Positions 4,337 to 11,793 of a stretch of DNA of 16,182 nucleotides are shown one piece after another. The stretch lies in IMG/VR virus record IMGVR_UViG_2526164689_000027, positions 1 to 16,182 of that record; one strand, 5' to 3'. The notes under the pieces were generated by a model, which saw nothing but the letters and a program-made list of their open reading frames with translations, had not been told where the DNA came from and did not search any database. The position numbers were made by a program, and so were the translations under genes. Within the stretch, counting starts at the first letter, position 1. Each line of letters starts with the position of its first letter. Origin of the DNA: a virus. Lineage: Duplodnaviria; Heunggongvirae; Uroviricota; Caudoviricetes.

Positions 4337-4646
4337 AAATTACCGCAGTGATGCACTTGCATCTGTACATGAAATGATGGAGTCACTCCATGATATCGGT
4401 GCAATCACAAAACAAACTATGCGCGAATTCGATGAAACTTGTCTTCAGCCTGCGCCGGTAATGTCTCCGGAAAGGATCCGTGCACTGCGAGAACGAGAGC
4501 ATCTGTCTCAACCTGTTTTTGCCAGATACCTCAACGTCAGTAAAAACCTGATATCAGACTGGGAACGAGGAGTGAAACGCCCGGGAGGTGCAGCTCTTCG
4601 GCTTCTTTCAGTTGTCGAGAAAAACGGGATCCAGGTAATATCCTGA
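4329..4646 (+). CDS. HTH (XRE-type) antitoxin, HigA-2-like (105 aa)
   Basis: Translationally coupled to the toxin. C-terminal region RIRALREREHLSQPVFARYLNVSKNLISDWERGVKRPGGAALRLL is a typical XRE helix-turn-helix. Confidence 0.7.
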   Translation: MSKNYRSDALASVHEMMESLHDIGAITKQTMREFDETCLQPAPVMSPERIRALREREHLSQPVFARYLNVSKNLISDWERGVKRPGGAALRLLSVVEKNGIQVIS

Positions 4647-4748: not shown

Positions 4749-4904
4749 TTACTCCTCAGGTTCGTAAGCTGTGAAGACAGCGACCTCCGTCTGGCCGGTT
4801 CGGATTCGTACCTCGCAGAGGTCTTTCCTCGTTACCAGTGCCGTCACTATGACGGTTAAACAGATGACAATCAGGGCGATTAACATCGCCTTTTGCTGCT
4901 TCAT
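4749..4904 (-). CDS. hokD: Hok/Gef-family type I membrane toxin (HokD/RelF-like, 51 aa)
   Basis: MKQQKAMLIALIVICLTVIVTALVTRKDLCEVRIRTGQTEVAVFTAYEPEE matches the Hok/Gef family across its full length (transmembrane helix then conserved CEVR..GQTEVAVFTAYE). ATG at 4904; the track ORF extends in frame to an upstream ATG at 4961. Confidence 0.85.
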   Translation of the reverse strand: MKQQKAMLIALIVICLTVIVTALVTRKDLCEVRIRTGQTEVAVFTAYEPEE

Positions 4905-5175
4905 AGCCTGCTTCTCCTTGCCTTTCGGCACGTAAGAGGCTAACCTACATGTGCAAAGCATGAAATTGGCCTCAGATTAATGTTAAGCGTCCTGCAAGAC
5001 GCGTAATGTTAACTGGGGCTTTTCTCTGTCTGCCTTACGGCGGCATGCCCGAGGCAGACAGCCTCAAGCACCCGCAGCAATTCTACTTAACTCTTCTTTC
5101 CCCGCAAATCATTTTATCCCCGATGGTAATGTTCTCCCGATATGGGAATTCCCATATCAAGGTTAACTCAATCGG

Positions 5176-5727: not shown

Positions 5728-5891
5728 GATAACGCCCTCTGGTTGATGAATTTAACTATCACCACCTTCAGGTCTCAATCATCAGGTGGCGAGACGTACA
5801 GGGTTGAGACTACCGGATCAACCAACCGGCCAGCCTTTCGGCTGCCCCATACGCCTCACCATAATTCAGATGTGCGTGCGCATACGACAAT

Positions 5892-5913
5892 AAAAAACAC
5901 GCTCGCGGCGTGT
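5892..5913 (-). terminator. Rho-independent terminator in the nin-type region (tR2-like position)
   Basis: On the minus strand: stem ACACGC / GCGTGT with 5-nt loop CGCGA, followed by 6 U (complement of A5892-A5897). Confidence 0.45.
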
Positions 5914-5998
5914 GTCTGTCGCGGTTGAATATCCGGGGTCTCAATCCCGACGGTCAACTCGACCGTGCGGTGAATATAGCCCCGGATTAGTAATTACG

Positions 5999-10177: not shown

Positions 10178-10827
10178 TGAGGTTGACGATGGAATTTAAA
10201 GATTTACCTCCTTCAATCCAGGAGATTGCAGCACACACACTTCGTCATCGTCTGAACGAACTTGAATTGGAATCGGTAACGAAAAAAGACACTGATAATA
10301 TGGCTCGTAATGTGCGCGATGCGTTTACCGGATTGTATTTCTGTGCGTCTATAAATAAACACGACTCAGAGAGTGTGGCAAATAAAATTGCAGAAACGAC
10401 AGCGCAAAACATCAATACGAAACCAACGGAAGAAGAAATTGATCAGTTTGCTCATGATGCTGGTTTAAAAAACAAGAAAGAAAAATCGCCATATGCGGGG
10501 AACATGTTTGTTTATGACAATCTCATCAGAATTCGTGGCGAAATTCCGGCGGAATACCTGGCAAGAGTCCATCAGGCATTGCTTAAAAATTTGGAAACAG
10601 AATTATTTGATGGCAACACTAACGGTTTCTTCATGGTATCAGGCCTTGAGAAAGACTGGGATGCAGAAAAACGCTGGAATGTTGCTACATGGTTATTCAG
10701 TAACAGAGCCGCTGCACTGGAAGCTTCGGCATGTATTTGCGGCCTGTTCTTAACAGACCACAAATATAATCTGGATGTGTACAGTTATATTTACGCTGAA
10801 CACGGTCCACTCTGGATTGACTGGTAA
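10177..10827 (+). CDS. Hypothetical 216-aa protein, no recognisable domain (alternative start 10189)
   Basis: ATG at 10177 overlaps the upstream stop (TGATG); the internal ATG at 10189 has a GAGG SD. Soluble, acidic, no transmembrane segment or nucleotide-binding motif seen. Occupies the slot where I recall Qin carrying only the small ydfB/ydfC genes. Confidence 0.5.
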   Translation: MRLTMEFKDLPPSIQEIAAHTLRHRLNELELESVTKKDTDNMARNVRDAFTGLYFCASINKHDSESVANKIAETTAQNINTKPTEEEIDQFAHDAGLKNKKEKSPYAGNMFVYDNLIRIRGEIPAEYLARVHQALLKNLETELFDGNTNGFFMVSGLEKDWDAEKRWNVATWLFSNRAAALEASACICGLFLTDHKYNLDVYSYIYAEHGPLWIDW

Positions 10828-11037
10828 TTATAAGGAAACACCAGCAGGGCCGCGGCGACCAACAGAACGATTAAAATCAATAATGCCATTATAAAGGACA
10901 TTATTTAATTTATCGTCGAATGCTGATTCTGTGAGCCTCAACTCTGAATGAGTTTTTAATAACCCTGATTGCCTGAGTTGATTTACCAGGCATTCAATCT
11001 GTTTTTCAATAAGCGGATTTCTTTTTTTGTTTGGCAT
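10828..11037 (-). CDS. Hypothetical 69-aa protein, convergent with and abutting the 216-aa gene
   Basis: ATG at 11037 with GGAGGA SD 5 nt upstream. Its stop codon (10830-10828) directly abuts the stop of the plus-strand gene (10825-10827). Opposite orientation to the surrounding operon. Confidence 0.35.
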   Translation of the reverse strand: MPNKKRNPLIEKQIECLVNQLRQSGLLKTHSELRLTESAFDDKLNNVLYNGIIDFNRSVGRRGPAGVSL

Positions 11038-11376
11038 TTTATCCTCCATTGAGGTTCTGGGTTAAAAATGGAGACCAACACGCTGTCACGTGTGGTCGTG
11101 CGCCGGACACGGATAAGAATCCGGTACTGACAGTTTACTGAAAGGATATTTCCCTGAAAAGTCAGTGCATAACGCGAAAGCGTACGGCGAAGCTCTTTCC
11201 CTTAGAAGGCTTGTCGTTAGATTTCTTCGAACGTGCGCTTCCGGTTGTGGCACTCCGCGAAATGGCGCGGCGGTAAGTATGGCGGGGTTATTCCTTCCCC
11301 AGTTGAGGACACCGGGTTGTCAGGTTGACCATACGCTTAAGTGACAACCCCGCTACAACGCCCTCTGTTATCAATA

Positions 11377-11434
11377 TTCTGGTGACATTTGGCGGTATCA
11401 GTTTTACTCCGTGACTGCTCTGCCGCCCTTTTTT
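11377..11434 (+). ncRNA. dicF: DicF small regulatory RNA (Hfq-dependent sRNA targeting ftsZ and other mRNAs)
   Basis: TTCTGGTGACATTTGGCGGTATCAGTTTTACTCCGTGACTGCTCTGCCGCCCTTTTTT matches my recollection of E. coli DicF almost base for base, including the terminator hairpin GGCGG (11391-11395) / CCGCC (11423-11427) and U-tract. Lies just upstream of dicB as in Qin. The 5' end is approximate (RNase-processed in K-12). Confidence 0.7.
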
Positions 11435-11604
11435 AAAAGTGAATTTTGTGATGCGGTGAATGCGGCTCAGCGCACGCGGAACAGTTAAAACCAAAAACAG
11501 TGTTATGGGTGGATTCTCTGTATCCGGCGTTAATTGTTAACTGGTTAACGTCACCTGGAGGCACCAGGCACCGCATCACAAAATTCATTGTTGAGGACGC
11601 GATA

Positions 11605-11793
11605 ATGGAAAAGTTATCATGTAATGCCAGCACGTCTGAACTTCGTTTCGAAATTGGCGTTATCACTGGAGACAAAACATTTATTGAAGACGCCATTAAG
11701 CAGAGAAAACTCGAGCAGGACCTGTTAAATGAAGTATGCATTCCTTCAATGCTGGCTCGTCTGGACCTGCTGCAAAAAGGATATAAACAATGA
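11605..11793 (+). CDS. dicB: Cell-division inhibitor DicB (62 aa)
   Basis: ATG at 11605 with GAGGA SD; the track ORF from 11500 would run through DicF. MEKLSCNASTSELRFEIGVITGDKTFIEDAIKQRKLEQDLLNEVCIPSMLARLDLLQKGYKQ aligns with recalled DicB (FEIGV, EDAI, SMLARL blocks) at the same 62-aa length. Confidence 0.8.
   Translation: MEKLSCNASTSELRFEIGVITGDKTFIEDAIKQRKLEQDLLNEVCIPSMLARLDLLQKGYKQ

Follow-up and report, generated by a model that had tools for sequence, protein, structure and literature searches.

The 339 nucleotides just upstream of the small RNA DicF in the window (our name for the whole 16,182-nucleotide stretch of viral DNA that we analyzed) are very probably a structured, non-coding leader that is processed and that supplies the 5' domain of the long form of DicF (11038-11376). 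Predicted folds and comparative data indicate that this region is made up of plus-strand RNA hairpins in series. It includes a four-way junction of 116 nucleotides (11244-11359, plus strand), which we call the core. We tentatively prefer to read the core as a module for the maturation and stability of long DicF. For the whole statement (the region is the leader of long DicF, and its core is such a module), we think that the chances are about even.

DicF is a textbook prophage small RNA that affects cell division, metabolism, and EHEC virulence. Its 190-nt isoform has been visible on gels since 1990, when Faubladier et al. reportedly described it as a long form of DicF from the Qin prophage of E. 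coli K-12.

Genomic context and homology to E. coli K-12

The region lies inside an operon, as a preliminary description of this DNA had proposed. Its surroundings are those of a dicBF-type operon, with dicA and dicC upstream and DicF (11377-11428) and dicB (11606-11793) downstream. The region is homologous to the ydfC-dicF spacer of E. coli K-12, which is also 340 bp long and has been described as a long untranslated region (PMC5069750). The identity to J53 (K-12) is 90% over positions 60-338 of the query, and the 339-bp query was matched in 4,317 of 5,426 complete E. coli genomes. The loci differ upstream of the leader: an antisense ORF of 69 amino acids is found here, and ydfC is found in K-12. 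Scanning for promoters and terminators gave no plus-strand promoter in the region and no terminator, and a sensitive Rfam scan of 10700-11700 found nothing overlapping 11097-11376 at E ≤ 10.

As others have established in K-12, the dicBF transcript gives rise to DicF species of 190 and 53 nt via RNase III and RNase E (PMC10448788). The 190-nt species builds up in stationary phase and upon inactivation of RNase E, and it is lost if RNase III is absent; also, Ragunathan et al. (2023) found no internal promoter in K-12 (PMC10448788). The 5' end of the 53-nt species depends on RNase E (PMC5069750, PMC10448788). These processing data are from K-12, while the leader in the window is known from its sequence. 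Taken with the homology of the spacers, they bear out the earlier suggestion of a long structured leader for dicF/dicB processing.

DicF and its intrinsic terminator hairpin and U-run occupy 11377-11434 (plus strand) and form the 3' half of the same 190-nt RNA. The Rfam model for DicF (RF00039) matches at 11377-11428 with 77 bits (E = 7e-16), and it has no match in 11038-11376 even at E ≤ 10. Therefore, the leader is a 5' extension of DicF and not DicF itself. Between the core and the 5' end of DicF is an A/U-rich linker of 17 nt, GCCCTCTGTTATCAATA (11360-11376, plus strand), which is predicted to be single-stranded. Together, the core, the linker, and DicF come to about 190 nt. A count of 190 nt back from the 3' end of DicF stops about 5 nt or less from where the core's closing helix begins (the published cut, "813/814", is shown by color only). 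Fig. S1 of PMC10448788 prints the K-12 copy of the core, and our covariance model of the core scores 159 bits on K-12 and 156 bits on the window. The core matches the 5' domain of 190-nt DicF.

Reading frames and upstream hairpins

The preliminary description saw no credible ORF in this region, and we agree. It is very improbable that the region chiefly serves the minus-strand 69-aa ORF as promoter and 5' UTR, or that it is an unannotated gene for a small protein. Mechanical ORFs of 55-68 aa are indeed present (59 aa at 11165-11344 on the plus strand, and 55 aa at 11086-11253 and 68 aa at 11288-11494 on the minus strand). But no frame is conserved among the homologues: the frames are disrupted by insertions and deletions whose lengths are not divisible by three, and the peptides diverge. 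For instance, the stretch from ATGG to CACCG varies from 25 to 31 nt among relatives, owing to a variable hairpin (P2b, described below), and the length of the upstream block ranges between 146 and 157 nt. We also considered a small ORF from the ATG in GTATGGC, but the peptides that start at this shared ATG run into different frames. RefSeq has no annotation under the match in most of the genomes listed.

As for a promoter of the 69-aa ORF, which the preliminary description had put forward, the idea does not hold for the region as a whole, as only 11038-11097 travels with such antisense ORFs. This segment does hold the ORF's Shine-Dalgarno sequence and a hairpin that covers it. The sole promoter-like match on the minus strand lies at 11065-11036. 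However, the -10 element of this match overlaps the start codon of the 69-aa ORF, so it cannot serve that ORF. From 11097 on, the sequence is kept in thousands of genomes that have the plus-strand gene ydfC upstream, rather than the antisense ORF.

The segment that travels with the antisense ORFs forms two hairpins, H1 and H2 (11044-11097, no strand assigned), which are present only in loci whose antisense ORF starts with MEDKM. In H1, CTCCAT (11044-11049) pairs with ATGGAG (11068-11073) and covers the Shine-Dalgarno sequence and the start of the 69-aa ORF (GGAGGATAAAATG on the minus strand). In H2, GACCAACACG (11073-11082) pairs with CGTGTGGTC (11089-11097). A second sequence type keeps both hairpins with other letters (CTCCT/AGGAG and CTCCAC/GTGGAG). 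Two further hairpins follow on the plus strand. SL-0 (CCGGA...TCCGG; 11103-11124, with 11103-11107 pairing with 11120-11124) has a conserved stem with a predicted pairing: in 16 non-redundant Qin-type sequences, its pairs either stay the same or become G-U, and none shows a compensatory change. SL-A (11126-11166), in which ACTGAC pairs with GTCAGT around an inner stem, appears both in the single-sequence fold and in the RNAalifold consensus of the 16 sequences, which show no compensatory changes there.

The sequence features that had been pointed out beforehand are all real and lie within 1-3 nt of where they were placed. These are the CACGTG palindrome (11087-11092; reported near 11085), which is within the H2 hairpin; SL-0 (reported at about 11101-11123); and CCGCG-AAATGG-CGCGG (11255-11259 and 11266-11270; reported at about 11254-11269), which is a helix of the core.

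A conserved four-way junction

The fold of the core holds up in a comparison of 78 distinct sequences. It is closed by P0 (11244-11250 with 11353-11359; 2 of 7 pairs covary). Inside the closing helix are P1 (11255-11259 with 11266-11270), P2a (11271-11274 with 11311-11314), the variable hairpin P2b (11284-11287 with 11297-11300; 3 of 4 pairs covary), and P3 (11315-11322 with 11342-11349, extended by 11323-11325 with 11335-11337; 6 of 8 pairs covary). All of these are on the plus strand. Among the 78 sequences, 97.1% of cells pair. Changes on both sides are seen in 12 of 37 pairs, as compared to 1-4 in slid controls, and the observed values were reached by none of 500 shuffles. Conservation and covariation across related prophages are clearly present, with hairpins kept via compensatory changes.

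The variable hairpin needed separate treatment. MAFFT and covariance-model alignments misalign the P2b stems, so we analyzed P2b by folding the excised segment. It has at least 9 different stem sequences, and its loop always has a UCCU-like motif.

Minimum-energy folds of single sequences from three distant members reproduce the junction. Nevertheless, thermodynamics alone is unconvincing: the isolated core has z-scores of -0.5 to -1.9, and single-sequence folding of the leader gives z = -2.8 for the plus strand and -1.75 for the minus strand. The case for the fold therefore rests on the comparative data.

The core may also contain a pseudoknot between GTATGG (11277-11282) and CCATAC (11329-11334, both plus strand), which the sequences weakly suggest. 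One of its 6 pairs covaries. All the variants that a search at its two G positions turned up were G-to-A changes without compensation (2 of the 78 sequences at position 5, and 4 at position 6).

From Escherichia to Erwinia, and in phage P1 as well, two loop sequences (CGGTAAGTATGGC and CAGGTTGACCATACGC) stay the same, while the flanks and P2b diverge freely. This exceeds what a passive stability or insulator domain would seem to need, which hints at a specific partner.

The core has no match in Rfam at E ≤ 10, and we found no published description of its fold or function. With a 7-bp closing stem and a four-way junction, it might be a tRNA-like element or a substrate of RNase P, and we rejected this idea: ARAGORN finds no tRNA or tmRNA, Rfam is negative, and the 5' end is RNase III-dependent. 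In K-12, both of the relevant 5' ends depend on RNase III or RNase E, which also argues against self-cleavage.

A duplex that competes with the core's closing helix

Adjoining the core on its upstream side is SL-B (11168-11249, plus strand), a predicted duplex of about 23 bp; the RNAalifold consensus yields the same stem. Its 5' strand is CATAACGCGAAAGCGTACGGCGAAG (11168-11192) and its 3' strand is CTTCGAACGTGCGCTTCCGGTTGTG (11225-11249), with a variable insert between them. The RNAduplex energy is -27.4 kcal/mol in the window and -27 to -34 kcal/mol in 12 of 13 other loci; the other one is from Serratia (-16.6 kcal/mol). SL-B is conserved in all 14 of the lambdoid loci that we tested and is weakest in Serratia. 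The inner sequence is specific to each class and yet remains complementary (GCGAAAGCGCAC/GTGCGCTTCCG, GATGAGAGCA/TGCTCTCTTC, and AGGTAAGAGCATTCC/GGAATGCTCTTTCC).

The last 6 bp of SL-B include GTTGTG, which is also the 5' strand of P0, so the two pairings compete. Predicted folds of the whole leader prefer SL-B to P0 before cleavage. SL-B is probably the RNase III substrate that makes the 5' end of 190-nt DicF. The last base of the 23-bp duplex is 11249; judged by the size of the 190-nt RNA, the 5' end of that species would be at 11240-11245. Some loci have lost both SL-B and the 5' strand of P0 while keeping P1-P3 (a sub-lineage with L012, L055, and L141 from Shigella), which suggests that P0 and SL-B may be dispensable.

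A model for the maturation of long DicF

We propose the following model. Transcription from a dicB-type promoter downstream of dicA would proceed through the region on the plus strand. SL-B (11168-11192 with 11225-11249) would fold first and be cut by RNase III, which would detach the upstream mRNA and leave a 5' end at about 11240-11245. Cleavage would release GTTGTGG (11244-11250) from its upstream partner, CATAAC, and allow it to pair with CTACAAC (11353-11359). This would close P0 and complete the junction of P0, P1, P2a/P2b, and P3, which might be locked by the loop-loop pseudoknot. The core, the linker, and the DicF terminator hairpin would then make up the stable 190-nt DicF, from which a cut by RNase E in the linker would free the 53-nt form. 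By burying the monophosphorylated 5' end in a helix and insulating the DicF hairpin from upstream sequence, the core would set the accumulation of long versus short DicF.

The refolding after cleavage and the roles in stability and gating are what we infer; the homology, the fold and its covariation, the competing pairings, and the distribution are results of our analysis. As a conserved, covarying multi-helix domain with invariant loops, the extra 137 nt of long DicF, which so far have been given no role, become a defined RNA element. GTTGTGG can pair either in the RNase III duplex or in P0 but not in both, and this offers a way for cleavage to set off folding.

Distribution of the core and control of termination

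The core occurs beyond DicF, in many prophages and in phage P1. About 80% of complete E. coli genomes have it, frequently more than once, and it also occurs in the pL-type leaders of Stx2c, cdtI, Citrobacter, Erwinia, Serratia, and Izhakiella prophages. A covariance-model search of the window and 102 fetched loci found one copy per locus. We grouped what follows the core into 17 downstream classes, and all 17 have a hairpin and a T-run 30-70 nt past the core (their presence was read by eye, as the script scored only some of the classes). Only 2 of the 17 classes reach the threshold for DicF (at least 48 bits with the 52-nt RF00039 model), so the core is not tied to DicF. In phage P1, the core starts about 25 nt downstream of the point where the C1-controlled Pban transcript is predicted to begin, and SL-B is absent. 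Its absence there is to be expected if freeing the 5' end of the core is all that SL-B does.

These arrangements raise an alternative that we consider unlikely, namely that the core controls termination in cis, either with put-like logic but no sequence kinship to put, or as a nut-like site for some factor. The nascent core would act on RNA polymerase or recruit a factor, and polymerase would read through the following terminator (here, DicF's) to dicB, ydfD, exo, and other early-left genes. The core always heads early operons, where a repressor gene of the cI or dicA type lies upstream in the same orientation. It is followed by a terminator in each downstream class and placed close to the predicted transcript start in phage P1. 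Viable phages with the core (cdtI and Stx2c phages, vB_EcoM-606R7, and P1) must pass the terminator to express early genes such as xis-int (in Citrobacter locus L146) or ban (in P1), and no N-like protein was detected between promoter and terminator. Also, loops that are invariant across genera would fit an invariant partner such as RNA polymerase.

An analogy is with put. Put RNAs are antiterminators that act in cis: they bind the zinc-binding domain of the beta-prime subunit of RNA polymerase, which leads to read-through of downstream terminators. Like the core, the put RNA of HK022 is structured, lies near the start of an early phage operon with no N gene nearby, and has terminators downstream. 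But the two are otherwise dissimilar. HK022 put RNAs are about 70 nt long, have two stem-loops, and come in two copies, putL and putR (PMC9378689), whereas the core is a single-copy, 116-nt four-way junction that is excised by RNase III. The covariance model of the core has no match in the immunity region of HK022 (L125) at E ≤ 5, and paired sites at both early promoters are absent, so we rejected an HK022-type put RNA.

We also dropped the idea of a lambda-type nut site (a single-stranded boxA, CGCTCTTA or TGCTCTTT, a boxB hairpin, and an N gene downstream). The boxA-like TGCTCT upstream of P0 is just the 3' strand of SL-B, where it is base-paired and covaries with the opposite strand. It is absent from phage P1. 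No N-like ORF or Pfam match was found near the core.

The core does have the layout of an attenuator, in which a conserved sensor fold precedes a terminator. However, inspection turned up no alternative pairing of the core with the terminator that is conserved and covaries. In particular, a riboswitch-type antiterminator, with CCGCCA or GGCGG pairing with the terminator arms, is neither conserved nor covarying: CCGCCA/TGGCGG can form in some copies, but it has an uncompensated break (CCACCA) in the cdtI, Erwinia, and Serratia classes and is absent from L048 and phage P1. Conserved competition is confined to the 5' side, where SL-B and P0 are the rivals. In lambdoid contexts, SL-B captures GTTGTGG first and RNase III then excises the core, which points to a post-transcriptional role. 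Finally, K-12 has both a terminated transcript of 1146 nt and a read-through transcript of 1608 nt (PMC10448788), so read-through is partial.

If the core does control the terminator, this would explain early-left expression in phages where no N-like protein was found, as well as the coupling of dicB expression to DicF production. The core would then be a new class of cis-acting leader RNA that governs the adjacent intrinsic terminator at the head of early operons, in phage P1 and in lambdoid phages where no N-like gene was found near it. It would act as a functional analogue of put, to which it is unrelated in sequence and fold, or as a sensor of a host signal, and DicF and its relatives would have evolved from its terminator hairpin. 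We put this scenario, too, at well below even chances.

Could the core act on its own?

Quite unlikely, in our view, is that the core is an autonomous functional RNA (a protein-binding or sponge ncRNA, or a sensor) that acts in trans or senses a signal once it is released, with DicF and the other hairpins as mere 3' ends. It does look like a discrete module: its boundaries are sharp at P0, the flanks are unrelated between phage P1, Qin-type, and cdtI-type contexts, and it is joined to many different 3' hairpins. The invariance extends to junctions as well as loops, and the motif in the P2b loop never varies in kind. In K-12, the 190-nt species is stable and regulated by growth phase (PMC10448788). 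On the other hand, no partner, ligand, or target of the core is known or predicted, it has no Rfam family, and we found no report in the literature of the released 5' fragment (about 135 nt) as a stable species.

The preliminary description had raised the possibility of a second sRNA, which stands in part. There is no separate gene or promoter for one, but 11244-11359 is a discrete, conserved, structured RNA domain within the stable 190-nt DicF. Either way, the core is a candidate RNA family that is missing from Rfam.

Comparison with known systems

The nearest relative of the leader is the 190-nt DicF of K-12, which comes from the same type of locus (about 90% identity). There, RNase III was shown to be responsible for the long form's 5' end, and RNase E for that of the 53-nt form. 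In the literature on 190-nt DicF, the extra 137 nt appear only as precursor, and we found no description of a fold, covariation, competition between SL-B and P0, or occurrence without dicF. Neither Shinhara 2011 nor two transcriptome studies of RNase III had anything specific on this spacer.

Other small RNAs arise in related ways. Small RNAs in 3' UTRs or within operons are processed from longer transcripts (PMC9438474), and StxS comes from the pR' leader of Stx phages (PMC7547250). As with such sRNAs (PMC9438474, PMC7547250), the sRNA here is a by-product of termination and processing in a phage operon, and RNase E trims it to an active short form. To our knowledge, no conserved, covarying multi-helix 5' domain that is common to unrelated operons has been reported for the precursors of StxS or of other 3'-UTR or intra-operonic sRNAs.

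In phage P1, whose ban operon is under C1 control, the leader of that operon has an annotated "dicF-like region" (AF234173, 68472-68573). It has the same core (95 bits), then a hairpin and a T-run, and it differs from the copy in the window by compensatory changes in P3 and in the pseudoknot. As the core is at the 5' end of the predicted primary transcript, there is no SL-B/RNase III stem. P0 is poorly formed. The terminator hairpin of phage P1 is not DicF according to Rfam, and dicB is replaced as the downstream neighbor by tRNAs, tciABC, and ban.

A conserved four-way junction upstream of DicF

The plus-strand leader 5' of DicF (11038-11376) contains a conserved 116-nt four-way junction (11244-11359), which we call the core. 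We derived its fold from an alignment of non-redundant copies. Helix P0 (11244-50 with 11353-59) shows changes on both sides in 2 of its 7 pairs. P3 (11315-22 with 11342-49, extended by 11323-25 with 11335-37) has both-sided changes in 6 of 8 pairs, and the hypervariable hairpin P2b (11284-87 with 11297-300) in 3 of 4, with at least nine different stems. The P1 helix (11255-59 with 11266-70) and P2a (11271-74 with 11311-14) have no both-sided changes, only one-sided G-U changes. A loop-loop pseudoknot may join GTATGG (11277-82) to CCATAC (11329-34), where one of six pairs changes on both sides (U-A to C-G, in phage P1). We consider it only possible because 6 of 78 sequences have uncompensated G-to-A changes.

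Across the 78 distinct sequences, 97.1% of cells hold standard pairs. Compensatory changes across related prophages, which the preliminary description had proposed as a check, are present: 12 of 37 core pairs change on both sides, versus 1-4 if the partners are slid by 1-3 columns. None of 500 shuffles reached the observed values, and we rejected chance as an explanation of the region. The same junction appears in the minimum-energy folds of three distant members (with unremarkable z-scores). A covariance model made from the alignment finds exactly one copy of the core per locus, at 95-160 bits. The unpaired CGGTAAG and CAGGTTGA are invariant, as is a UCCU-like motif in the P2b loop; the core's flanks and P2b vary freely.

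Helix P1 is one of two hairpins that had been noticed from the sequence alone (CCGCG, loop AAATGG, CGCGG). On recounting, the positions reported for it, for the other hairpin (CCGGA at 11103-07 with TCCGG at 11120-24), and for a CACGTG palindrome (11087-92) were correct to within 1-3 nt. The region had also been said to lack a useful open reading frame. Mechanical ORFs of 55-68 aa do overlap it, but no frame is conserved. Among relatives, the segment bearing P2b ranges from 25 to 31 nt and the upstream block from 146 to 157 nt, with indels that are not multiples of three, and peptides from a shared ATG enter different frames. RefSeq has no annotation at the region in most of the genomes listed. 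We rejected a coding explanation, as reading frames are not kept in relatives, and also a promoter-only explanation.

The first 60 nt (11038-11097) belong with the antisense 69-aa ORF. One hairpin (11044-49 with 11068-73) holds this ORF's Shine-Dalgarno sequence and start, and a second carries the palindrome; another type of locus retains both hairpins with different letters. The idea that a promoter for the minus-strand ORF lies here did not hold up, as a scan gave no usable minus-strand promoter. Small, differing antisense ORFs with the same start (MEDKM...) are found in the window (10828-11073, minus strand) and at six comparison loci (L086, L016, L022, L105, L106, and L112), where they sit as insertions between the DicF leader and the operon genes 5' of it. 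They share an upstream hairpin that sequesters the Shine-Dalgarno sequence, and look like a moron-type cassette with a common translation-initiation region. Pfam has no match for the window's 69-aa and 216-aa proteins.

The region is the leader of the long DicF RNA

The region does sit inside an operon, as had been proposed. We assign it to a dicBF-type operon because DicF (11377-11428, 77 bits with Rfam), dicB, and a ydfD-like gene lie 3' of it, and dicC, dicA, and a DUF1391 gene lie 5'. Of 5426 complete E. coli genomes, 4317 match the 339-bp region, and the median copy number per genome is two. The 340-bp ydfC-dicF spacer of a K-12 derivative, which carries no annotation, aligns with query positions 60-338 at 90% identity. 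The gene 5' of the leader is ydfC (plus strand) in K-12 versus the antisense 69-aa ORF in the window, so there is a mosaic joint near 11097. Everything from about 11097 to DicF moves as one with DicF.

The ydfC-dicF spacer has been described as a long untranslated region (PMC5069750). DicF from K-12 exists as two species, of 53 nt and 190 nt (Ragunathan et al. 2023, PMC10448788). The 190-nt species builds up in stationary phase and upon RNase E inactivation, and is lost if RNase III is absent; no internal promoter was found in K-12 (PMC10448788). The sequence in Fig. S1 of that study is the K-12 copy of the core (the cleaved base is indicated by colour only). The core (116 nt), a 17-nt linker (11360-76), and DicF with its U-run come to about 190 nt. 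Counting by size from the 3' end of DicF gives an estimated 5' end for long DicF at 11240-11245, the base of P0. [quoted passage not shown] That the region is a structured, processed leader of the long DicF RNA is well supported.

An upstream duplex competes with P0

Directly 5' of the core, CATAACGCGAAAGCGTACGGCGAAG (11168-92) pairs with CTTCGAACGTGCGCTTCCGGTTGTG (11225-49) to form a duplex of about 23 bp, SL-B. Its energy is -27 kcal/mol in the window and -27 to -34 kcal/mol at 12 of 13 other loci (Serratia has -16.6). The inner sequence varies by prophage class, with complementarity retained. For RNase III, SL-B is the obvious candidate substrate. The final six pairs of SL-B take GTTGTG, the 5' strand of P0, so the upstream CA(T/C)AAC and the downstream C(T/C)(A/G)CAAC are in competition for a single strand. 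When the leader is folded uncut, the upstream pairing is favored over P0. In phage P1, the core starts about 25 nt past the predicted Pban transcription start and there is no such duplex, which fits with the duplex serving to free the 5' end of the core inside longer transcripts.

In a sub-lineage (L012 1625-1761, L055 5214-5350, and L141 1447-1583, the last from Shigella flexneri), a deletion between two CGCGAAA repeats (equivalent to 11174-80 and 11256-62) has removed SL-B along with the P0 5' strand; helices P1-P3 remain, as does a variant terminator hairpin. In Erwinia, Izhakiella, and one viral contig (L151 about 4440-4520, L152, and L048), the variable insert of SL-B contains a tRNA T-arm-like sequence, GGCGGGTTCAATTCCTGCCACCGC, perhaps a piece of a tRNA or what is left of an att site.

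We favor a processing and stability role for the core. RNase III would cleave SL-B, and P0 would then close, hiding the newly made 5' end. The compact core and the terminator hairpin would bracket the A/U-rich linker, where RNase E would later free the 53-nt DicF. Such a pathway would explain why the 190-nt species is stable and why it builds up when RNase E is lacking. Less readily explained are the invariant loops across genera, the cores with non-DicF hairpins, or the lineage that lacks P0 and the duplex.

Other RNA elements

The dicF-dicB spacer (11436-11590, plus strand) is bounded by a long inverted repeat, GTGAATTTTGTGATGCGGTG...CACCGCATCACAAAATTCAT, where RNase III probably cuts to generate the 3' end of the 72-nt DicF. 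This spacer has a sub-threshold match to STnc100 (11442-11582, 37 bits; the cut-off is 47), and phage P1 has a similar weak match 5' of tciA (L003 3842-3961). At this position, cdtI-type loci have a different long-stem element.

A full-length STnc100 (724-536, 134 bits) lies on the minus strand, within 493-1777, after the Q antiterminator gene (PF06323, 1103-1777) and before a strong terminator (511-493). Given this order, STnc100 holds the position of the pR' leader/tR' short transcript in this prophage, much like lambda 6S RNA or StxS. Within the rightward early operon are RNAs at 4899-5073 and 5782-5966 (minus strand): the sok antitoxin RNA (117 bits) and C4 antisense RNA (69 bits), which adjoins isrK (51 bits).

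Another conserved block, non-coding and about 190 nt long, is element X (TTTGGTTGTAACACGGCGTATGGCACATGCGTCGTTAGCGG...), common to the pL leaders of cdtI, Stx2c, and Citrobacter prophages and the trnI-ban interval of P1 (L004 2244-2430, L146 3904-4092, L155 3243-3430, and L003 4766-4958). The copies are about 79% identical, with a predicted fold of several hairpins. Element X has no match in Rfam and is absent from the window.

The core heads diverse early operons

As phage and plasmid searches reveal, the region comprises separately distributed blocks, of which the one around 11255-11352, about 100 nt long, is the most widespread. This block lies 3' of cI, and is co-oriented with it, in cdtI, Stx2c, and Salmonella phages. 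P1, P7, and P1-like plasmids carry it in the leader of the ban operon, which C1 controls (the P1 record labels part of the block "dicF-like region"). Scanning one genome per species, we saw the block in Escherichia, Shigella, Citrobacter, Trabulsiella, Serratia symbiotica, Erwinia tracheiphila, and Izhakiella; we rejected the remaining matches as chance, inside a protein gene. E. coli- or P1-type copies in metagenome-assembled genomes labelled Bacillota, Veillonella, Proteobacteria, and Collinsella (L142, L143, L145, and L147) are most likely from contaminating Escherichia contigs in the bins.

Judged by eye, a GC-rich hairpin and T-run lie 30-70 nt 3' of the core in all 17 downstream classes, often with a conserved 5' arm, TTGGCGGTA(T/C)C. 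Only 2 of the 17 classes reach Rfam's threshold for DicF, so DicF is one variant of the terminator hairpin on a more widespread element. The genes 3' of the core are dicB, ydfD, and exo in the window; xis-int in Citrobacter; rdgC in one viral contig; genes for DUF2303 and HD-domain proteins in cdtI and Stx2c phages; and tRNAs, tciABC, and ban in P1. In two viral contigs (L086 and L055), isrK and C4 replace dicB, a few hundred nt on. In cdtI, the order is the cI terminator, a strong promoter (TTGACA-16-CATAAT), a leader of about 280 nt, the duplex, the core, and the terminator.

This arrangement raises the main rival to a processing role: the core might control the downstream terminator, either via a factor or in the manner of put, the cis-acting antiterminator RNA of HK022. 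The core's place in early operons, always with a terminator 3' of it, would suit such control, as would the absence of an N-like protein from the core-bearing loci checked. But the core is present in single copy, it is probably excised by RNase III, and it has no conserved alternative pairing with the terminator. Nor does it resemble put, and our covariance model finds nothing in the HK022 immunity region. We think it unlikely that the core represents a new class of leader RNA that controls terminators. The core may also act in trans or bind a partner.

For K-12, the transcript and its processing were already known. Relative to the searchable literature and Rfam 15, what appears to be new is the definition of the conserved 116-nt fold, the competition between the duplex and P0, and an element that is broader than DicF and heads other early phage operons.
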